Positions 408 through 60,306 of a stretch of 64,000 nt of DNA are shown here, one piece after another. The notes under the pieces are model-generated. The model ran no database searches. It was not told the origin of the DNA and was given only the letters and a program-made list of their open reading frames with translations. Position 1 is the first letter of the stretch. Every line of letters begins with the position of its first letter. This DNA is from an uncultured Candidatus Saccharibacteria bacterium (GTDB taxonomy: Bacteria > Patescibacteriota > Minisyncoccia > Phycocordibacterales > UBA918), in contig CAZRNZ010000001.1 of the NCBI GenBank assembly GCA_964601615.1, positions 71,658-135,657 on the forward strand, written 5' to 3'. Position numbers and translations under genes: made by a program.

Positions 408-2108
408 TCACGATAAAGGTAACATCCTTTGTCTGGTCAAAACTTGTTTAATTACTCTACGTAAGTAATGTTCAAAACTTTCACCTAACTCATGAATTAT
501 TCCTTGTTCATAGCGCCAACCATTCATGTAATCGGTCAAACTTTGTTTAATTTGAGGAGTAGCACCTTCAAATCTGCCAGCGATCACAGCTGCCATTGGC
601 ATAGTAGAAAGTTGTTTATAAAGTGGGTGCTCTATTCCCTTTGGACCCATCCCAAGAAAACCGCTTGATTTAAACAGTGTCCATTCTGATAGAAGCTTCT
701 CTAATCCAGACTGAACCTCTGGAGAATTTAAATCAGTGATTGGCTTTTTTGATTCTGCTTCTCTTTTGGCAACTTCCTCACGAAGCTTAGACATTTTTTC
801 TGGCAAAGTCGTGGAATCCTTGAGAGATTTTAGTGATGCCCTATCATCTGATTTTTCGTCTTGGTTTTGTGTACCGATATTCAAATGACGCACAGAAGAT
901 TCTGCTGTCGTCTGTGGAGTTGCGGGGGCATTCTCTGTCTCTTCGTCAGATTTTCTTTTTAGCAAGCTAGACAATACTGGTTTCGCTTTTTTATTTTCTG
1001 CTTGATCAAGTAAATCAATCTCATCAATTGGTTTATGATATAGACCAGAAGTAACTCTAGGTTTTGCAATTTCTGGTTTAACTTCTTCTCTAACCTGCTC
1101 TACCTCTTCAGGTATGGATGTAATTTCTGGTTCGTTAATTTCCTCTGGTTCAACTACTGGAGTCTTTACATCTTCAGACTCAAGTTCGTTAGAATTCTCC
1201 CAGGTTACATTTTCAATTTCTTTTGTTGTCTCTGGTTCAGCTATTATTTCTTGTCTTTCGGTAACTTCTTTCTTAGGGAGATTTTTTTTTGTTGATACTT
1301 GATCAACTATAGTCAATGCTGACTTATAAGCATTTTCCAAACGATTAAGAGCTTCGTTTTGACTACCACCGCTGTTTAGTATCTTCATTGCATCAAGAAG
1401 TGCAGACATGTACTCGCGACCAATTAGTTCGTTTGTGCTGATTAAGTTTATTGGATTACCAACACGACCATTTATGTCACGTTTTATTTCATCAATTCTT
1501 GTGCGTAAATCACCAGAAACAGATCTGGTTTCTTCTACTTTAATTTCTTCCTGTGGTAATTCTTGAGGAATCTCTATTTTGCTTTCTTCTTTTACTTCGA
1601 TAACCTCTTCTTCTGGTTTATCCACTACTAGCGGCTCTTTAATTTCTGTTTCAGGTTTAACAGTCGGTTTTTCTACTTCTGCAATCGCTAGTGGACTTTC
1701 TGGAAGAGAAATATTTTCTTCTGCTTTAGTTTCTATTTCAATTTTTTTTTCTGGTTCAGCAACAAATTCCTCTCTGAAAGTTGGGATATTAAAAGTAGGA
1801 ACTCTTCTAAAAGAACCAGTGTTTGAATTTGTTTGATTCGGAGCTTCTTCTAGTGTCTTAGATGAAACTTTTGACTCTTGGACTATATTCAGAGTCGGTA
1901 AAATGTCCTTATATTTAGCTAACTTCTCTAAAATATCCTCCTTAAGTTGTGATCGTCTTGTTTCATCTGTTTCACCAGCAAAATCTAAAAAAAGATCACG
2001 AAAGACTCCCTTCTCTGTAGTTGGGATTGTGGAATTTCGTATCGTTGCTAATGTTTTTAAGATACTAGCTTCCGATTCAAAAATATCAAGAAGAACAGAC
2101 TCATCCAT
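408..2108 (-). CDS. hypothetical Glu/Lys/Pro-rich low-complexity (probably disordered) protein with short ordered N- and C-terminal regions
   Basis: 566-aa ORF with a long acidic repeat core (EEIKEPLVVDKPEEEVIEVKEESKIE...). Co-oriented with and 2 nt upstream of the holB-like ORF. No recognisable domain. Confidence 0.5.
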   Translation of the reverse strand: MDESVLLDIFESEASILKTLATIRNSTIPTTEKGVFRDLFLDFAGETDETRRSQLKEDILEKLAKYKDILPTLNIVQESKVSSKTLEEAPNQTNSNTGSFRRVPTFNIPTFREEFVAEPEKKIEIETKAEENISLPESPLAIAEVEKPTVKPETEIKEPLVVDKPEEEVIEVKEESKIEIPQELPQEEIKVEETRSVSGDLRTRIDEIKRDINGRVGNPINLISTNELIGREYMSALLDAMKILNSGGSQNEALNRLENAYKSALTIVDQVSTKKNLPKKEVTERQEIIAEPETTKEIENVTWENSNELESEDVKTPVVEPEEINEPEITSIPEEVEQVREEVKPEIAKPRVTSGLYHKPIDEIDLLDQAENKKAKPVLSSLLKRKSDEETENAPATPQTTAESSVRHLNIGTQNQDEKSDDRASLKSLKDSTTLPEKMSKLREEVAKREAESKKPITDLNSPEVQSGLEKLLSEWTLFKSSGFLGMGPKGIEHPLYKQLSTMPMAAVIAGRFEGATPQIKQSLTDYMNGWRYEQGIIHELGESFEHYLRRVIKQVLTRQRMLPLS

Positions 2109-2164: not shown

Positions 2165-3178
2165 TTATCGCTTAGCGATGATTGTACGCTTGTAGGTGTC
2201 TAGGTGTTCAAGAGCAATTCCTGTTCCCTTGGCAACACAGAATAGTGCTTGATCAGCCAACTTTGCAGAAACACCAGTTCTTCTGCGAATCAATTCTGGG
2301 AAGTTACGAAGTTGTGAAGTTCCTCCTGTCATGATAATTCCGCCATCCATAATATCTGAAGCAAGTTCTGGTGGTGTGTCTTGAAAAACATCTTTGATAG
2401 CTTTTACCATTTCACGAAGCTCTTTGCCGATTGCTTGAACAATTTCGTTAGTCTTCACTTCTGTAACTCTTGGCAGTCCTGTTATTACGTCTATACCTTT
2501 AACGTCAATCGTAAGTTCTTCTTGTAGCGGAAGAGCTGAACCAATCTGGATCTTTACTTCCTCAGCTGTTTTTTCACCGATAGAAAGATTTCTGGTTTTC
2601 TTGATGTAGTCAATAATTGCGGCATCAATACGATTTCCTGAACACTTCACTGAGTTTGATGCAACAATTCCTCCGAGACTAATTACAGCAACATCGATAG
2701 TACCTCCACCACAGTCAACAATCATGTGTCCTTGTGGTTCATAAATAGGAACTCCAGCACCAATAGCAGAAAGAATCGGCTCTTTCACAACATAAGCATT
2801 TTTTGCACCAGCTTTGATAGCGGCCTCTACTACAGCGCGTTTTTCGGTTGAGGTAACCCCTGCAGGAACAGAAATAAGAACATCTGGTCTGAAGAAATTC
2901 CATTTCCCTAAAGCTTGTCGAATAAAATGTCCAAGCATTATTTCTGTAACTCGGTAATCAGCAATTACGCCATCTCGGAGTGGACGATAAGCGCGAATTC
3001 CGTCTGGGGTGCGACCAATCATTTCCTTTGCAGCTTTTCCAACAGCCAAAACCTGATTGTTGTCTGATACAGCTACTACTGACGGTTCATTTAGTACAAC
3101 TCCTTGTCCTGGAATAAATACCAAGATACTGGTTGTTCCAAGGTCGATACCGATTTTAGGGCTAAGGCGAGAAAACAT
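2165..3178 (-). CDS. mreB: rod shape-determining protein MreB (actin-like ATPase)
   Basis: IGIDLGTTSILVF, DCGGGTIDVAVISLGG, and IIMTGGTSQLRNF motifs; 337 aa. Confidence 0.9.
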   Translation of the reverse strand: MFSRLSPKIGIDLGTTSILVFIPGQGVVLNEPSVVAVSDNNQVLAVGKAAKEMIGRTPDGIRAYRPLRDGVIADYRVTEIMLGHFIRQALGKWNFFRPDVLISVPAGVTSTEKRAVVEAAIKAGAKNAYVVKEPILSAIGAGVPIYEPQGHMIVDCGGGTIDVAVISLGGIVASNSVKCSGNRIDAAIIDYIKKTRNLSIGEKTAEEVKIQIGSALPLQEELTIDVKGIDVITGLPRVTEVKTNEIVQAIGKELREMVKAIKDVFQDTPPELASDIMDGGIIMTGGTSQLRNFPELIRRRTGVSAKLADQALFCVAKGTGIALEHLDTYKRTIIAKR

Positions 3179-3227
3179 AATTCAGAATATTTCGTATAGC
3201 ATAGCAAATTTATTAAACATATTCGAC

Positions 3228-3243
3228 ATAGCATATATGCTAT
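3228..3243. promoter_or_regulatory. 16-bp perfect palindrome ATAGCATATATGCTAT in the mreB/murA divergent promoter; candidate operator for the HTH-MurA product
   Basis: Self-complementary 16-mer 14 nt upstream of the murA ATG. A related half-site GTATAGCATAGCA lies at 3194-3206. Confidence 0.45.
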
Positions 3244-3256
3244 ACTTTAATGGTAT

Positions 3257-4765
3257 ATGGAAAATAATATCGGCAAAAAAATAGCAGACTTACGTGAAGC
3301 CTCTGGCTTAACTCAGTCTGAATTAGCAAAGAAATTAAAAACCACTCAAAGTGCTGTTGCTCGCATTGAAACTGGTGGACAAAATGTTAGTACTGAAACT
3401 TTAAAAAAGATATCTAAAGCTTTGGGTAAAAACATCGTTACGCTTTCACCTGGAAGTTTAAATATAGAAATTGAGGGTGGATATAATTTGAGTGGAACTA
3501 TTGAGACTAACACTTCTAAGAATGGTGCTGTTGGTCTTTTGTGTGCTTCCCTTCTTAATAAAGGTCGTACTACCTTGCGTAGGATGCCCCGTATTGAAGA
3601 GGTTCATCGCATTATAGAAGTCTTGGAATCGATCGGTGTTAGTGTCGTTTGGCAAGGAAATGATGTTGTAATTACTCCAGCTAAGCAACTAACATTAAGT
3701 AAGATTGATACTGAAGCTGCTGTACGTACTCGCAGTATCATCATGTTTATCGGTGCTCTAATGCATAGATTAGAAAAATTTAGCTTACCGCAGTCTGGTG
3801 GGTGTAAGCTCGGTTCTCGTACAGTGCGACCACATTTTTTTGCTTTGGAAGATTTGGGTGTTGATATTAAAACCACTGAAAAAACTTTTGATATTACTGT
3901 TTCCAAGACTAATAAAAAAGAAAGAGAAATTGTTCTTTATGAATCTGGTGACACAGTTACTGAGAATGCTCTGTTCGCTGCGGCAATGACTTCTGGAGTT
4001 ACAACTATAAAGTACGCTTCTGCTAACTACATGGTGCAAGAGGTTTGTGCCTTCCTACAGGTTTGTGGCGTGAAGATTGATGGAATCGGTACAACAACTT
4101 TGATTGTTCATGGAATTGAGGATATTAATTCTGATATTGAATATACACTTTCAGAAGATCCAACTGACTCCATGTTTTTCTTGGCTTCTGCCATTGTAAC
4201 TAACTCAGAGATTACGATTACCCGCTGCCCGATTGATTTTCTAGAACTGGAATTACTGGTGTTAGAAAAAATGGGATTTAAGTACACTAAGAGTAAGACT
4301 TATCTTTCTCACAATGGTGTGACAAAGTTGGTTGATATCAAAACCAAGAAATCTAAGTTGGTAGCGTCTCCGGAAAAGGTTCATTCCAGACCATATCCAG
4401 GACTTAATGCTGACAACCTACCTTTCTTTGCTGTAATTGCTACACAGGCCGAAGGACAGACTTTAATTCACGACTGGATGTATGAAAAGCGTGCTTTGTA
4501 TTTTACTGAGCTTGATAAACTTGGTGCCGACACAGTTTTGGCAGACCCACATCGAATTTATATCACTGGCAAAACAACCTTGAAGCCAGTGGAGCTAATT
4601 TGCCCACCAGCTTTGCGTCCCGCTACAATCCTTTTGATTGCTATGCTCGGAGCTTCAGGAAGATCAGTATTACGAAATATTTACTCTATCAATCGAGGTT
4701 ATGAAAAATTGGTTGAACGTCTAAATTCAATTGGTGCGAAGGTGAAATACTTGGAAGAGTTTTAG
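3257..4765 (+). CDS. murA: UDP-N-acetylglucosamine 1-carboxyvinyltransferase (MurA) with an N-terminal XRE-type helix-turn-helix domain fused in-frame
   Basis: Residues 5-60 (IADLREASGLTQSELAKKLKTTQSAVARIETGGQNVSTETLKKISKALG) form an XRE HTH. The rest has the MurA/EPSP-synthase fold with the catalytic-loop Cys (QSGGCKLGSRTVRPHFFALEDLGV). Single uninterrupted 502-codon ORF. Confidence 0.8.
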   Translation: MENNIGKKIADLREASGLTQSELAKKLKTTQSAVARIETGGQNVSTETLKKISKALGKNIVTLSPGSLNIEIEGGYNLSGTIETNTSKNGAVGLLCASLLNKGRTTLRRMPRIEEVHRIIEVLESIGVSVVWQGNDVVITPAKQLTLSKIDTEAAVRTRSIIMFIGALMHRLEKFSLPQSGGCKLGSRTVRPHFFALEDLGVDIKTTEKTFDITVSKTNKKEREIVLYESGDTVTENALFAAAMTSGVTTIKYASANYMVQEVCAFLQVCGVKIDGIGTTTLIVHGIEDINSDIEYTLSEDPTDSMFFLASAIVTNSEITITRCPIDFLELELLVLEKMGFKYTKSKTYLSHNGVTKLVDIKTKKSKLVASPEKVHSRPYPGLNADNLPFFAVIATQAEGQTLIHDWMYEKRALYFTELDKLGADTVLADPHRIYITGKTTLKPVELICPPALRPATILLIAMLGASGRSVLRNIYSINRGYEKLVERLNSIGAKVKYLEEF

Positions 4766-4906: not shown

Positions 4907-4940
4907 AAAAGACCTCGTGATATTTCACGAGGTCTTATTT
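4907..4940. terminator. intrinsic terminator hairpin (AGACCTCGTGA...TCACGAGGTCT) flanked by A/T runs; bidirectional between murA (+) and the NUDIX gene (-)
   Basis: 11-bp stem, A-run upstream and T-run downstream. Confidence 0.6.
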
Positions 4941-5419
4941 TATTTAATTTGCCTAACGGCATATCTTGCTATCCGAGCTACTTCTGTATTATCGATTATA
5001 TCGTTTTTGTTTCTCCAAGCATATTCCAATAATTCCTTATTAAGCGAAGGATTTTTATTTGGTATTTGTCCAGTGAAAATAATAACAGTGTCCCTCTTCC
5101 CTTCTGTGTCTGTATAGTAAGTTGCTAGGTCATGTAATTCTGTGATTAGAATATCTAGTTCTTCTCTAACTTCACGAATAGCAGCTTGCTTAGCAGATTC
5201 TTTTTTTGGATTATATCCACCACCAGGAAGATTCCATAGTGATTTGTTGCCATAACTATGTCGCACAATCAGTATCTCGTCATTATTTTCTGGATTAAAT
5301 ATTAAAACCTTTACACCGTAAGTTTTAGGTTTAAATATCTTCCAGTAAGTATGAATCAACAAGAGTAAGGTTTCTCTAAAAAACATTGTTCGTAAAGTAT
5401 ATAATAAATTAAAAGCCAC
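4940..5419 (-). CDS. NUDIX hydrolase
   Basis: Nudix box GGGYNPKKESAKQAAIREVREELD (G-x5-E-x7-REVxEE). Confidence 0.75.
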   Translation of the reverse strand: MAFNLLYTLRTMFFRETLLLLIHTYWKIFKPKTYGVKVLIFNPENNDEILIVRHSYGNKSLWNLPGGGYNPKKESAKQAAIREVREELDILITELHDLATYYTDTEGKRDTVIIFTGQIPNKNPSLNKELLEYAWRNKNDIIDNTEVARIARYAVRQIK

Positions 5420-8739: not shown

Positions 8740-9555
8740 ATGAAATTTATTTTCTTTGGAACACCATATGTAGCAAGGGATACTCTGGAAGCACTTCTAG
8801 AGAATGGTTTTAAGCCTGAGTTGGTAGTAAGTAATCCGGATGCGCCGCGCGGGCGTGGTCGCGTGATGACTCCGAGTGAAACTAAGGTTTTGGCAGAACA
8901 ACACAATTTGCCTGTGTACACGCCTATGCGGCTAGATGCTGAAGCTGTAGCAGAAATTAAGAAATACAATTGCGATTTTGCTATTGTGGTTGCTTACGGG
9001 AAAATCTTGCCACAAAGTTTGCTCGATATATTTCCGAAAGGAGTTTTTAATATCCATTATTCTTTGCTGCCAAAATATCGTGGCGCCTCACCAGTGGAAA
9101 CTGCACTTTTAAATAATGATGCTGAAACTGGAGTAACTATCCAAAAGATGGTTTTAGCAATGGATGCTGGTGATATTTTGGCACAAGAAAAAGTTGATGT
9201 TTTAAATGATGACAACACTACTTCCTTGCGTAAAAGATTAATTGATTTAGGGAATGAAATGTTAATAAAGGTTTTACCGGATATTCAAAGTGGAAATCTA
9301 GATTTGGTTCCTCAGGATTCTGATACTGTTTCTTTTGCTTCCAAGATGAAAAAGGAAGATGGGCTTATTTCTTTTGAAGATTCTGATTTAGAAAATTGGA
9401 GCAAATACCGAGCCTATGTTGAATGGCCAGGAACTTATTTTTTTGAGAACGGTAAAAGAATCAAAATTACTAAAGCTCACTTTGACAATGGAAAGTTTAT
9501 GATAGACAGAGTTATTCCTGAAGGTAAAAAAGAGATGGATTATAGGAGAGATTAA
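8740..9555 (+). CDS. fmt: methionyl-tRNA formyltransferase
   Basis: MKFIFFGTPYVARDTLEALLENGFKPELVVSNPDAPRGRG... The ATG at 8740 sits 1 nt after the def stop. The track ORF begins further upstream in the same frame inside def. Confidence 0.85.
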   Translation: MKFIFFGTPYVARDTLEALLENGFKPELVVSNPDAPRGRGRVMTPSETKVLAEQHNLPVYTPMRLDAEAVAEIKKYNCDFAIVVAYGKILPQSLLDIFPKGVFNIHYSLLPKYRGASPVETALLNNDAETGVTIQKMVLAMDAGDILAQEKVDVLNDDNTTSLRKRLIDLGNEMLIKVLPDIQSGNLDLVPQDSDTVSFASKMKKEDGLISFEDSDLENWSKYRAYVEWPGTYFFENGKRIKITKAHFDNGKFMIDRVIPEGKKEMDYRRD

Positions 9556-13637: not shown

Positions 13638-13703
13638 GATTCATATTGTAACATCATGCAAAAAATAGCTTGCTACTTTTTAAATAAGTTTTAAAATCAG
13701 ATT

Positions 13704-23979: not shown

Positions 23980-23992
23980 GAGATAAGTATAT

Positions 23993-24027
23993 CAACACAA
24001 AGGGCGCCTTCGGCGCCCTTTGTGTTG
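23993..24027. terminator. hairpin CAACACAAAGGGCGCC-TTC-GGCGCCCTTTGTGTTG
   Basis: 16-bp stem between fba and the ABC permease gene. Confidence 0.65.
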
Positions 24028-24036
24028 ATATAAATA

Positions 24037-25537: not shown

Positions 25538-25570
25538 TTGTTAATTATAGCAAATGTGTCAAATGAAAAT

Positions 25571-25602
25571 AAAAAGCGCAGAGGCGAAGCCTCTGCGCTT
25601 TT
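25571..25602. terminator. terminator AGCGCAGAGGC-GAA-GCCTCTGCGCTTTT
   Basis: GAA-triloop hairpin with a GCGAAGC core, downstream of the minus-strand gene ending at 25607. Confidence 0.75.
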
Positions 25603-32443: not shown

Positions 32444-33019
32444 GTGCGTTACATTGTATTCGACCTGGAAACCCAAAATACTTTTGCTGATGTTGGCAGT
32501 AATGATTCTGTTAGCCTAGATATTTCTGTGGCCTGTTTTTATGATAGCGAAACGGATCAATATACTACGGTAACTGTTGATGAACTTTCTACTGTTTGGC
32601 CACTTCTAGAAAAAGCTGATGCTTTGGTTGGATACAATAGTAATCATTTTGATATCCCGCTTTTGAATAAATATTATCCGGGAGATTTGACTACCATAAA
32701 GAGTATTGACCTGCTTGAATCTATTCGTGCATCACTCGGCCGTCGTTTGCGATTGGATAGTGTGGCTGAGGCTACTATCGGTGCTAAGAAATCAGCGGAC
32801 GGCCTGCAGGCCGTCCGCTGGTGGCGTGAAGGAAAAATTGATGAAATCAAAAAATATTGTCAGCAAGACGTTAAGGTAACTAAGAAAGTTTTTGATTACG
32901 CAATGACTAACGGACACGTGAAGTTTAAGGACGGCTCTCGCAAGCGCGAAATAGTTCTCGATACTTCAACTTGGACTGAAAAGGAGGATTCTTCGATGAC
33001 TCACGCTCTGCCTTTTTAG
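32444..33019 (+). CDS. DEDDy-type 3'-5' exonuclease (DnaQ/RNase D-like fold)
   Basis: Exo motifs FDLET, YNSNHFDIPLL, YCQQDV. The likely start is GTG at 32444 (M-RYIVFDLET), not the track's TTG at 32390, which sits inside the hisS terminator hairpin. Confidence 0.6.
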   Translation: MRYIVFDLETQNTFADVGSNDSVSLDISVACFYDSETDQYTTVTVDELSTVWPLLEKADALVGYNSNHFDIPLLNKYYPGDLTTIKSIDLLESIRASLGRRLRLDSVAEATIGAKKSADGLQAVRWWREGKIDEIKKYCQQDVKVTKKVFDYAMTNGHVKFKDGSRKREIVLDTSTWTEKEDSSMTHALPF

Positions 33020-33935: not shown

Positions 33936-34751
33936 TTATTGTGAAGCTATTACTAAAAGTATTACTATGCTAGCTAAAACAATACGGTACCAAATAAATG
34001 GCCAAAGGCTATATTTGCGGACGAATGAAAGCATAAAATGAATAGCGAATAATCCAGCCAAGAAAGCAATTGTGGCAGCAATTATCAAACTTCCCCAGTC
34101 AAAAGAATTATTTAGGGACATCAAATCAACTAGCTTTTTGGCACCACTTCCAGCAATGATTGGAATTGCTAACAAGAAAGAAAAGCGAGCTGCTTCAGAA
34201 CGAGTAAGCCCCATCATCATTCCTCCCACTATTGAAGCACCACTTCGCGACATGCCAGGCAAAAGTGCTAAACATTGAAAGAGACCAATCTTAAATCCTT
34301 TTTGAATTGTCATTTTTTCATCTCTTGGATTATTGGTGTAGTGCCATTCAGCAAACATGAATAAGATAGACCCAAGAATTAAAATTACTCCGACAAATAA
34401 TGGATTGCGAAAAATCGTTTCCATATATGACTCAAGGAATAGTCCCATTATGACAGCAGGAATTGTACCTATCATCAGTGCGTAAGCCAATGTGATTTCT
34501 TTTTGATTTACTGGTAGGCGGGACATTTTACGTAGAACAGCATTTGTCATTGTTAGTAAATCTTTATGAAAATAAATTATTACTGCCAAAACTGTCGCGA
34601 GTTGTAGTACGGCATCAAAGGCTAAATCATTCTCGCTAGCTCCCAAAAATGAGTGTAAAAGCACTAAATGGCCTGTAGATGATACTGGTAAAAATTCCGT
34701 AAAGCCTTGTAGTAGGCCAAAAAATATACTGTTTACAGCTTCCATTGCCAA
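33936..34751 (-). CDS. uppP: undecaprenyl-diphosphatase
   Basis: GFTEFLPVSSTGHLVL and PGMSRSGASI motifs; 8 TM helices. Confidence 0.85.
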   Translation of the reverse strand: MAMEAVNSIFFGLLQGFTEFLPVSSTGHLVLLHSFLGASENDLAFDAVLQLATVLAVIIYFHKDLLTMTNAVLRKMSRLPVNQKEITLAYALMIGTIPAVIMGLFLESYMETIFRNPLFVGVILILGSILFMFAEWHYTNNPRDEKMTIQKGFKIGLFQCLALLPGMSRSGASIVGGMMMGLTRSEAARFSFLLAIPIIAGSGAKKLVDLMSLNNSFDWGSLIIAATIAFLAGLFAIHFMLSFVRKYSLWPFIWYRIVLASIVILLVIASQ

Positions 34752-34780
34752 ATATTATATCATGGTAAAATATTGGTTAT

Positions 34781-38524: not shown

Positions 38525-38622
38525 TGCTCAATTATATCACCCTATTTAGTACTAGATAAAACTTGCGATTTTTAACGAGAGGAGTACCATAACACCTTCG
38601 TTTTTAGTTAATTTAAAGAATT

Positions 38623-40719
38623 ATGTCCTCTATTCCATTGCTGTTGATGATTTTTCTCATGCTCAGCTTATCTTCATTGGCTGTTTTTTGGGCTAGACGT
38701 CTTGGTATCCCTCACACAGTATTATTGGTAGCCCTAGGTGTGGCTATTGGTTTTATCGCAACAATACCAGGATTTTCTTTTCTTAATGCTCTTCAGTTAA
38801 CTCCTGAGCTTTTGTTTTATGTATTTTTGCCTACCCTGATCTTTGAGTCAGCGTATAACATCAATTTACGTAAACTATATGAGGATAAAATGCCGGTAAT
38901 ACTACTTTCAGTTATCGGTCTTTTAATTTCTGCTGGTTTAATTGGATTGGCGCTTTACTTTATTTTTGGATTTTTAGGATTCCATGTGCCGCTTATTATT
39001 ACACTGCTTTTTGGGGCTTTGATTTCAGCTACTGATACAGCAGCGGTATTGGCTCTCTTTAAAGAGTATGGTGCACCTAGAAGATTGGCTTTAATTTTTG
39101 AAGGCGAAAGTCTATTTAATGATGCAACTGCAGTAGCTTTATTTTTGATTTTGTTACAAATTGCTGTGGTTGGTTTTTCTGGTTTTTCAACAGTTATGGA
39201 AGGTTTTATTGCCTTTACCCTCATGATGGTGAACGGAATTATTTTTGGTTTGATAGCTGGTGTGATTTTTTCAGAGTTGGTTGGTAGAACTCGTGATAAT
39301 GAAGCAGCAAGTATTACTCTCACAATTGTTTTGGCACACGTCACTTTCTTGTCAGCAGAGCTAATTTCTCATTATTGGGTTATTGGCGGACAACATATTT
39401 ATGTAGCCCCAATAATTGCTACCACAGTCGCATCTTTGGTGATGGGTAATTTTGGTCGTTCAAAAATTCATCCTAGAGCTGAGGAATTCGTTGAAAAACT
39501 CTGGAGTCAGATGGCATTTATTGTCAATTCAGTCATTTTCATTTTGATTGGTTTGTATTTTGTTTCTGTTCCTTTGGATCAGCCAGTTGTGTTAGTTTCA
39601 ATTATTATAGCTATTGTTGTTGTAGCTTTGGCTCGCACTCTTGCGGTTTACCTGCCGATTGGTGCTTTTAATTTCTTCGCTTCTCCAGAAAGAAAGGTTC
39701 CAAGAGAATGGCAGCATCTTTTGTCTTGGGGTAGTTTGCGAGGTGCCTTTGCGGTAGTTTTGGTTTTGATGGTGCCAGAAGATTTGACTGTTGCTGGTTG
39801 GAACTTCCCTATTAGTTTGCATGACTTTTTGCTGGCTTTGACACTTGGTTGTATTTTTGCCACAACCTTCATTAAGGCAACTTTGATGCAGAAAGTAATG
39901 AAGAAGCTAAAGCTCGATGTTCCAACTGATATTGAATCATTAGAATATCAAGAGGCTCGTGCTTTGATACACCGTACTGTAAATGAACGTTTAACTTATT
40001 ATAAAGATAGAGGTTATGTGAGTGAATTGGCTTTTGTTGAGCTAAGTCGTTCACATGCTAAAGAATATGATGAGGCGGTTTCGTTGGTAAAAAAACTGGA
40101 TAGTGGTTTGCTTGATGATTTAACTAAAAGAGTTATTCGCATATATGCTATTGGTATCGAAAAACGTCACTTGAAAGATTTATATCATTATGATGAAGTC
40201 AGTGAGTTTGTCTTCAAACGAATTATGCATAAACTCTCTCTTCAGCTTGAGTCTATCGAGCGTGGTGATATTGAATCCAGTGCGCGCATACACACAGATG
40301 GAGCTGGAGATATTATTGATAGCATTGTTATGCGTATTGCTGCATTCTTCTCGCCAAGGTCAAAGGAAGATAAATTCCTCGATTCTTATATGTACTATCG
40401 AGCCCAAGCAATAGTTTCACGAAAAGTTCTCAAAGAGTTGGGTGAGCTTAGTTCAGATGATGCTGAGAGCATCTTTACAAAAGAAGCTTATGAACATGCG
40501 ATTTATATTTACAATTCATTCCGTGATCAAACTAAGTCAAAGATTGATTTGATGAGTAATGAGTGTCCAGCTGTTGTAGAAAAAATTGAACGTGATCTAG
40601 CTGTTCGTGGAGTAGAAAAGGTAGAAGAAAAGACTCTTGACGAACTTTATGAGCGTGAACTTGTGACTCCAAAACTATACTTAAATCTGAAGAAAGAGTT
40701 AAATATTAGACATTCTTAA
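38623..40719 (+). CDS. Na+/H+ (cation:proton) antiporter, CPA1/NhaP-type, with a large C-terminal cytoplasmic domain
   Basis: 12-13 TM helices; conserved SATDTAAVLALF (NhaP ATDPVAV-like). Confidence 0.8.
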   Translation: MSSIPLLLMIFLMLSLSSLAVFWARRLGIPHTVLLVALGVAIGFIATIPGFSFLNALQLTPELLFYVFLPTLIFESAYNINLRKLYEDKMPVILLSVIGLLISAGLIGLALYFIFGFLGFHVPLIITLLFGALISATDTAAVLALFKEYGAPRRLALIFEGESLFNDATAVALFLILLQIAVVGFSGFSTVMEGFIAFTLMMVNGIIFGLIAGVIFSELVGRTRDNEAASITLTIVLAHVTFLSAELISHYWVIGGQHIYVAPIIATTVASLVMGNFGRSKIHPRAEEFVEKLWSQMAFIVNSVIFILIGLYFVSVPLDQPVVLVSIIIAIVVVALARTLAVYLPIGAFNFFASPERKVPREWQHLLSWGSLRGAFAVVLVLMVPEDLTVAGWNFPISLHDFLLALTLGCIFATTFIKATLMQKVMKKLKLDVPTDIESLEYQEARALIHRTVNERLTYYKDRGYVSELAFVELSRSHAKEYDEAVSLVKKLDSGLLDDLTKRVIRIYAIGIEKRHLKDLYHYDEVSEFVFKRIMHKLSLQLESIERGDIESSARIHTDGAGDIIDSIVMRIAAFFSPRSKEDKFLDSYMYYRAQAIVSRKVLKELGELSSDDAESIFTKEAYEHAIYIYNSFRDQTKSKIDLMSNECPAVVEKIERDLAVRGVEKVEEKTLDELYERELVTPKLYLNLKKELNIRHS

Positions 40720-60253: not shown

Positions 60254-60306
60254 ATATCATAACATATTAAAATAAACAAAACTCCCCAATTGGGGAGTTT
60301 TGTTAA

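Follow-up and report, generated by a model that had tools for sequence, protein, structure and literature searches.

Whether an enzyme of peptidoglycan synthesis can serve as the transcriptional regulator of its own gene is the question raised by a murA locus in 64,000 nucleotides of DNA from an uncultured Candidatus Saccharibacteria bacterium (contig CAZRNZ010000001.1, positions 71,658 to 135,657), a stretch referred to here at its full length as the window. The MurA encoded at this locus carries an N-terminal helix-turn-helix (HTH) domain of the XRE type, and we designate it HTH-MurA. All positions stated in an earlier note on this DNA were confirmed; mreB lies at 2165-3178 (minus strand), the divergent spacer at 3179-3256 and the fused open reading frame (ORF) at 3257-4765. 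The 78-bp spacer between mreB and murA also contains, as the note had described, a perfect 16-bp palindrome. Comparison of related sequences suggests that HTH-MurA is probably an active MurA with a DNA-binding domain, which represses its own gene through the palindrome by occluding the -10 element. The gene and the parts of its product are as follows.

3257-4765, plus strand: HTH-MurA fusion gene, 502 amino acids plus stop, monocistronic (ORF list, Pfam and NCBIfam).
3281-3439, plus strand: XRE/Cro-C1 type HTH, residues 9-61 (Pfam PF01381, HTH_3, E-value 2e-15).
3341-3376, plus strand: predicted recognition helix and turn, T29-T-Q-S-A-V-A-R-I-E-T-G40 (alignment to 434 repressor).
3440-3460, plus strand: short linker TLSPGSL, residues 62-68.
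3461-4762, plus strand: MurA (UDP-N-acetylglucosamine, UDP-GlcNAc, 1-carboxyvinyltransferase) domain, residues 69-502; codon of catalytic Cys183 at 3803-3805.

The in-frame joining of the two domains, claimed from the translation in the earlier note, was borne out by the ORF and by Pfam, which identified both HTH_3 (57 bits against a cut-off of 23) and EPSP_synthase (PF00275; residues 73-489, profile positions 2-417 of 417, E-value 7e-46). The protein passed the NCBIfam subfamily model for MurA, PRK09369 (314.9 against a cut-off of 297), and did not reach the curated equivalog TIGR01072 murA (301.8 bits against a cut-off of 392.7), which indicates a divergent MurA lineage. Among representative matches, identity to the MurAs of model organisms was approximately 30-35%. 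The MurA part aligned over its full length to solved MurA structures (best E-value 1e-52), and no HTH was present on any solved MurA chain matched (chain lengths of 418-479). The nearest solved sequences to the HTH were small XRE proteins, including 434 repressor, HipB and SinR (best E-value 5e-8). Residues K88, R159, C183, R188, D386, R412 and R454, which we take to be the equivalents of E. coli K22, R91, C115, R120, D305, R371 and R397, were all present and were invariant across 40 aligned fused homologs of 56-83% identity. From these intact catalytic residues, the MurA domain is predicted to be catalytically competent, and the window protein would itself represent the active form of the family. 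T29, Q31, S32, A35, R36, E38, G40 and N43 were invariant in the same 40 homologs; the recognition helix was assigned by alignment to 434 repressor and from general knowledge of the fold. An AlphaFold2 monomer model (predicted local distance difference test score, pLDDT, of 86.8; predicted template modeling score of 0.82) gave a confident MurA fold, with the four HTH helices at residues 5-15, 20-26, 31-39 and 46-56. Linker residues 61-65 had a pLDDT below 50, and consequently the placement of the HTH relative to MurA was not fixed by the model. Neither the 64-kb window nor the related loci of 7.5 kb contained a second MurA homolog, and no related second HTH was found in the window.

The fusion was widespread. 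The 120 best homologs (76-100% identity) all contained both domains; one, on a 310-kb public contig, was 100% identical to the window protein, and the other 119 were fused as well. Named sources among them were metagenome-assembled genomes of Paceibacterota, Kaiserbacteria and Nomurabacteria. In a scan with one genome per species, 80 of 80 GTDB species loci were fused, and so were the 120 best homologs of a distant member of the family. These counts answer in the affirmative the question, posed in the earlier note, of whether MurA orthologs in related genomes carry the HTH. Among 1.84 billion cluster representatives, fused forms extended to identities as low as 33%, and unfused MurAs were interleaved at up to 61%. 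The fusion also occurred in cultured Actinobacteria, namely Sanguibacter (including a complete 4.3-Mb chromosome), Nonomuraea genome assemblies and Aeromicrobium. In public annotation the fused proteins are labeled either MurA or 'helix-turn-helix domain-containing protein'.

Two overlapping elements in the spacer define the predicted site of action.

3228-3243, no strand assigned: predicted operator ATAGCATATATGCTAT, a perfect 8+8 palindrome with two ATAGC half-sites, a 6-bp center and 11 bp from center to center.
3238-3246, plus strand: murA extended -10 TGCTATACT, which overlaps the right operator arm and ends 10 nt before the ATG.

The window contained four perfect palindromes whose arms were at least 8 long, compared to a mean of 1.6 in first-order Markov simulations, where the maximum was 5. 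The palindrome by itself is thus not significant, and its significance derives from its conservation in related loci. The arrangement ATAGC-N6-GCTAT occurred once in the 64-kb window. Further sites, which the earlier note had proposed to look for, were not found there: the exact 16-mer had only a 2-mismatch match (40136-40151, apparently within the long ORF 38623-40719), a 1-mismatch ATAGC-N6-GCTAT at 8969 was at chance level, and the 64 kb yielded no regulon. For the half-site TATAGCATA, allowing 1 mismatch, 10 matches were counted against 16 expected, and the half-site alone is uninformative.

A sigma-70 consensus scan called no promoter and found no -35 in the spacer; the scan was empty because the -35 is absent. 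The murA promoter was instead assigned from the extended -10 in the logo described below and from a pattern repeated across the window. At 8 other window genes, the end of a TGnTAnnnT lay 6-11 nt before the ATG, and the right arm of the palindrome was taken as the murA promoter. The same motif lay 17-19 nt before the start of two more window genes, mreB among them. The other TGCTATAAT promoters of the window lacked the left arm. Leaderless transcription seems to prevail in this genome, and from the position of its -10 the murA mRNA looks leaderless or nearly so. The 8 genes usually had no obvious -35 or Shine-Dalgarno sequence, and examples of upstream regions with TGnTAnnnT are 2109-2164, 13638-13703, 23980-24036, 25538-25600 and 38525-38622. 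A separate 35-bp divergent spacer at 34746-34780, with opposed extended -10s TGATATAAT and TGGTAAAAT lying 8-9 nt from each gene, forms a very compact bidirectional promoter.

Conservation was assessed in 80 close loci of approximately 7.5 kb each, with a logo computed over 81 loci. In all 80 there was a single ATAGC-N6-GCTAT, and in every case it lay just upstream of the fused gene. The logo read T-ATAGC-A-T-A-T-A-T-GCTAT-A-n-T with both arms invariant. Its right side, TGCTATAnT, is an extended -10 in which T10, G11, T13, A14, T15, A16 and T18 were conserved, and the positions expected for a -35 held no information. The last T of the -10 (T18) was kept in 74 of 81 loci, whereas the mirror position on the left was A in only 17 of 81, which argues against the left arm being a second -10. 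In 61 of the 81, 6-11 nt separated the end of the murA -10 from the ATG. The palindrome was kept in 8 close loci where mreB was not adjacent, and it was intact in three loci with a co-directional upstream neighbor (L046 and L069, two of those 8, and L168); in L046 and L069, therefore, no divergent promoter is needed. In Actinobacteria of 65-70% GC, an AT-rich perfect palindrome, ATCTC-N6-GAGAT, stood 12-13 nt before the ATG. The distant examples are listed below.

L168:5972-5989: palindrome TATCTCATCTATGAGATA of Sanguibacter CP138359.1.
A Nonomuraea genome of 70% GC: palindrome ATCTCATATGTGAGAT.
L169:4972-4987: palindrome of Nonomuraea sp. NEAU-A123.
L170:4974-4989: palindrome on a 522-kb contig of approximately 51% GC, which has the fusion as well as pilin-like and murB genes.

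The presence of the site followed the presence of the HTH. A metagenome scan added 80 loci that mixed fused and unfused genes, and counts were made over the loci with enough upstream sequence (140 fused and 20 unfused). An unguided search for the best palindrome in the 200 nt upstream picked unrelated chance palindromes in many loci, and scans restricted by position or pattern were used instead. The generic pattern AT..C-N6-G..AT was present within 200 nt upstream of 128 of the 140 fused genes, 109 of them with fully complementary arms, and it ended 9-13 nt before the ATG in 96 of the 128. The pattern was found at 3 of the 20 unfused genes and in 5% of shuffled sequences; none of the three unfused matches was fully complementary, and all were chance partners of a -10-like right arm. 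At least 7 of 8 palindromic pairs within 50 nt upstream were found in 89 of 140 fused loci, compared to 0 of 20 unfused loci and approximately 3% of shuffles. The co-occurrence of palindrome and HTH that the earlier note had suggested checking was thus upheld. Four unfused relatives with the same mreB-murA-priA order, mreB divergent, kept ATGCTATAMT and lacked the ATAGC left arm, and ATAGC-N6-GCTAT was found nowhere in their loci; further unfused loci likewise kept ATGCTATAMT without ATAGC. In a rough neighbor-joining tree of the MurA domains, the fused or unfused state changed approximately 10 times, with unfused lineages scattered among fused ones, and the left arm was absent in every unfused lineage.

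The half-sites also varied with the recognition helix. Symmetric ATAGC sites paired with the helix TTQSA[VI]AR in 88 of 88 cases, and ATATC, ATACC and ATCTC half-sites mostly paired with TSQSA[VI]NR. A one-residue recognition code, in which A35N or T30S would determine G or T at half-site position 4, was tried and rejected, as it failed for L107, L108 and a clade of pseudoenzymes; for this reason we propose only co-evolution at the level of clades.

This pseudoenzyme clade, which includes P0130, P0131, P0139, P0142, P0144, P0232, P0238 and P0442-P0446, kept the HTH and the recognition helix, and the Cys loop and the equivalents of C115, R91, R120 and R397 were gone. Three of its genes were located in loci of 13.5 kb.

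L165:6001-7503: pseudoenzyme gene P0130.
L166:6001-7536: pseudoenzyme gene P0442.
L167:6001-7518: pseudoenzyme gene P0445.

The pseudoenzyme gene was arranged head-to-head with mur genes in all three: in L165 and L166 the opposite gene was a canonical unfused murA, with murB next to it, and in L167 the opposite side comprised murD, two Mur ligase genes, then murA and murB. A Mur-ligase gene lay downstream of the pseudoenzyme gene, preceded in L165 by a Ddl-like gene. The spacers of 29-71 bp contained the perfect palindromes ATATCATATATGATAT, TATAACTTATATGTTATA or TAATATATCATACATGATATATTA, and no other such palindrome was found within the three loci. Because regulator and enzyme are separate genes with the site between them, these loci are hard to read other than as ones in which a protein of HTH-MurA fold would control peptidoglycan precursor genes transcriptionally. 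The clade looks like a case of an enzyme turned dedicated regulator, and it suggests that a MurA fold is able to act as a sensing domain.

Taken at the window locus, the co-occurrence of HTH and site, the overlap with the -10, the co-variation of helix and half-site and the pseudoenzyme clade all argue strongly for the direct autoregulation of murA that the earlier note had put forward. Two copies of HTH-MurA would bind the two ATAGC half-sites at 3228-3243 through their HTH domains, each joined to MurA by a short, flexible linker, the half-sites being approximately one helical turn apart. Transcription would start at the ATG or a few bases before it, from a promoter without a -35. The site would then span roughly -26 to -9 and be centered near -17, where it would cover the TG and the first -10 bases. 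The right half-site contains these bases of the extended -10, and for this reason a bound dimer would be expected to compete with RNA polymerase and exclude it. The first committed step of peptidoglycan synthesis would thereby come under negative feedback. A more speculative extension, by analogy with BirA, is that the MurA domain acts as the sensor, with occupancy by UDP-GlcNAc, phosphoenolpyruvate (PEP) or UDP-N-acetylmuramate (UDP-MurNAc) altering the affinity for DNA. This idea derives from the pseudoenzymes, in which HTH and MurA fold persist although the catalytic residues are gone, and whose genes adjoin real murA-murB operons. Joined together, these proposals would describe a one-protein device for precursor feedback whose MurA active site reads UDP-GlcNAc, PEP or UDP-MurNAc, within a family that traces a path from enzyme-repressor (Paceibacteria, probable Saccharibacteria and some Actinobacteria) to a dead MurA-fold regulator of murA-murB and other mur genes. 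This joint reading is possible, and we offer it tentatively.

Several points weigh against autoregulation by HTH-MurA. Every link between HTH and palindrome is correlative, and only about half of the palindrome counts as independent evidence because the right arm is needed as promoter anyway. Twelve of the 140 fused loci had no generic site within 200 nt upstream; some of these had near-variants (TTACC-N6-GGTAT) or a site further upstream, and L086, L143 and L156 had none. The correlation of helix and half-site appears to follow two big clades to a large extent, and it has exceptions in L107, L108 and the pseudoenzyme clade (TSQSAVAR with ATATC). MurA is generally described as monomeric, and this and the low-confidence linker of the AlphaFold2 model complicate the picture of two 55-kDa subunits assembled on a 16-bp site. 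Binding to the palindrome, as a dimer and with repression as the effect, was inferred, the choice of repression over activation coming from the position of the site only. Ligand sensing is the more speculative step and would draw on analogy.

The role of mreB bears on the alternatives to be weighed. Its gene and probable promoter, and a further element at the other end of the murA transcription unit, are given here.

2165-3178, minus strand: mreB (Pfam MreB_Mbl, E-value 1e-124), divergent from the fused gene across the 78-bp spacer.
3198-3206, minus strand: probable mreB extended -10 TGCTATGCT, 19 nt before the mreB ATG.
4909-4936, no strand assigned: bidirectional terminator-like hairpin with a 12-bp stem and a T-run on both strands, shared with a convergent gene (terminator scan).

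The earlier note had read GTATAGCATAGCA at 3194-3206 as a related half-site repeat. The sequence was confirmed at that position and its reading as a half-site did not hold, since relatives carry there not ATAGC but a TACTAT -10 paired with a TTGTnn -35; most simply, the repeat is a probable mreB -10. mreB adjoined the fused gene in 72 of 80 close loci and was also the neighbor of murA in unfused relatives. In distant fused loci, the palindrome followed murA, and most had no mreB within the 1.5-kb flank. Co-regulation of mreB, suggested in the earlier note, was not supported, because the site follows murA where the two genes are separated and the divergent gene order persists in relatives that lack both HTH and palindrome. 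mreB is thus best described as a neighbor, its membership in a regulatory unit being unsupported by these comparisons, and the palindrome could conceivably have some influence on mreB from its position upstream of the mreB -35. In six loci with spacers of 188-329 bp (L002, L022, L023, L030, L065 and L072), 60-250 bp were inserted between the palindrome and the murA ATG, and some of the inserted stretches held GC-rich hairpins. The distance of the palindrome in these loci was constant to mreB, not to murA, and the genes would have long leaders.

It is unlikely that the HTH binds the palindrome with activation as the output, or acts chiefly on mreB or other genes so as to coordinate elongation with precursor supply. 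The missing -35 is a feature common in activator-dependent promoters. Of 38 close loci whose mreB promoter could be recognized, 17 had the end of the palindrome 11-12 bp upstream of its -35, a position workable for activators, and the pairing of mreB with murA in most close loci would fit such coordination. However, an extended -10 needs no -35, and a protein bound near -17 over the TG and the first -10 bases should exclude sigma. The site stays with murA where mreB is elsewhere, and unfused relatives keep the extended -10 and the gene order without the HTH, which indicates that the promoter works without the HTH protein.

An arrangement in which the palindrome is promoter architecture only, with back-to-back extended -10s for murA and a divergent transcript such as mreB and an HTH unrelated to it, is improbable. 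Bacteria are known to have bidirectional promoters of symmetric design, the right arm has the classic form of an extended -10, a promoter type common in the window, and in L165 both arms can be read as opposed TGATAT-type -10 elements. Against this, the mirror of the last -10 T is unconserved on the left, and recognizable mreB promoters have their own -35 and -10 nearer the mreB start. The left arm persists in loci whose upstream gene is co-directional and in those with mreB elsewhere, it is gone in every unfused relative despite the same divergent mreB, and it is missing from the other window promoters of this type.

Equally little probability attaches to a separate regulator that binds the palindrome while the fused HTH does something else, for example placing MurA on the nucleoid non-specifically or mediating protein contacts. 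XRE domains are abundant, one other HTH_3 gene lies near the Nonomuraea locus, and binding of the palindrome by the fused HTH was inferred and not direct. However, the palindrome was lost at each loss of the fused HTH across the approximately 10 changes in the tree, and the class of half-site tracks the sequence of the fused helix. A recognition helix that is invariant over 56-83% identity would be unexpected for non-specific binding, and a second HTH homologue is absent from the 64-kb window. Finally, the possibility that an error of assembly, frameshift or gene calling created the fusion and hides a small XRE protein and a separate MurA, a generic concern for metagenome-assembled genomes that the earlier note had also raised as an assembly join, can be dismissed, because the identical in-frame junction recurs in hundreds of independent assemblies, including the complete Sanguibacter chromosome and Nonomuraea assemblies, the LSPG of the linker is conserved in close relatives, and no internal Met from which a separate MurA could start occurs between residue 1 and approximately residue 110.

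Other features of the window were noted in passing. The convergent gene that shares the terminator-like hairpin (4940-5419, minus strand) encodes a Nudix-box-like motif, GGGYNPKKESAKQAAIREVREELDI, read from the translation. Downstream of mreB, 408-2108 (minus strand) is a 566-amino-acid ORF with a long, very acidic, low-complexity middle rich in Glu, Lys and Pro. Two further perfect palindromes, a GC-rich one of 28 bp at 32793-32820 (CAGCGGACGGCCTGCAGGCCGTCCGCTG) and one of 30 bp at 60275-60304 (AACAAAACTCCCCAATTGGGGAGTTTTGTT), may be bidirectional terminators.

Enzymes that double as repressors are known from other pathways. BirA is an active enzyme with an N-terminal HTH that binds as a dimer to a palindromic operator at a promoter of its own pathway, with its ligand state setting the binding. 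The earlier note had likened HTH-MurA to BirA, and the comparison is apt as a way of working, with the same architecture of HTH and enzyme and a palindrome that overlaps the promoter. It does not extend to homology, as Pfam and NCBIfam identified only HTH_3-type and EPSP_synthase/MurA domains: BirA combines a winged HTH with a biotin ligase fold, whereas HTH-MurA combines a Cro/C1-type HTH with an EPSP-synthase fold. BirA also represses the bio operon and not birA itself, whereas the proposed target of HTH-MurA is its own gene. PutA and NadR resemble HTH-MurA in that their catalytic domains are preceded by a fused, N-terminal DNA-binding domain. Repression by PutA acts on the divergent putA-putP region and so covers putA itself, an arrangement comparable to the HTH-MurA site in a divergent spacer. 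However, PutA has a ribbon-helix-helix and is switched by redox state and membrane binding, NadR has other enzyme folds, and neither acts in peptidoglycan synthesis. With an apparently intact enzyme, a DNA-binding domain and a candidate operator at genes of its own pathway, HTH-MurA shows these features of the class, and we regard it as a predicted enzyme-repressor that works like BirA, PutA and NadR and is not a member of the class by descent.

The pseudoenzyme clade has other parallels. In MocR/GabR (aminotransferase-like), ROK/NagC (kinase-like) and B. subtilis PurR (phosphoribosyltransferase-like), the former active site is thought to be an effector pocket, and the clade likewise combines an inactive enzyme fold with an HTH beside pathway genes. 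The folds differ, and the HTH-MurA family has both active and inactive forms, so that the path from enzyme-repressor to pure regulator is traceable. The fused HTH itself belongs to the same fold family as the 434/lambda-type repressors and the XRE antitoxins HipB, HigA and PezA, which are typically dimers on promoter-overlapping palindromes and commonly autoregulate. Unlike HTH-MurA, these proteins are small or have oligomerization or peptidase partner domains, and none is on a biosynthetic enzyme; their resemblance to HTH-MurA does not go beyond the generic HTH.

MurA is controlled elsewhere by ClpCP proteolysis with ReoM/ReoY in Firmicutes and by tight binding of UDP-MurNAc. As proposed for HTH-MurA, these controls limit flux at the first committed step, but they act through separate proteins or on enzyme activity and involve no DNA-binding domain on MurA. 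A 2026 review of peptidoglycan regulation names CodY and VxrAB, both separate proteins, as regulators of murA transcription, and mentions neither an HTH nor autoregulation. No description of the HTH-MurA fusion was found in the literature searched, the coverage of which was incomplete, and this absence is not proof.

MurA catalyzes the first committed step of peptidoglycan synthesis and is the target of fosfomycin, and a DNA-binding domain of its own would be a different and direct form of control. Over large parts of the Patescibacteria, a group not easily studied by experiment and generally described as encoding few regulators, HTH-MurA is seemingly the usual form of MurA. Cultured Sanguibacter and Nonomuraea share the fusion and palindrome, which puts the idea within reach of ordinary biochemistry and genetics. 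Annotation as plain MurA hides a putative regulator and, in one clade, an apparent non-enzyme. The dead relatives would offer a traceable case of an enzyme becoming a transcription factor, and they suggest that the MurA fold was reused as a sensor domain. In these organisms, fosfomycin or UDP-sugar analogues might change expression as well as activity. If true, the proposal would add an unrecognized and widespread transcription-factor family built on the MurA fold, and an important regulator in Patescibacteria.

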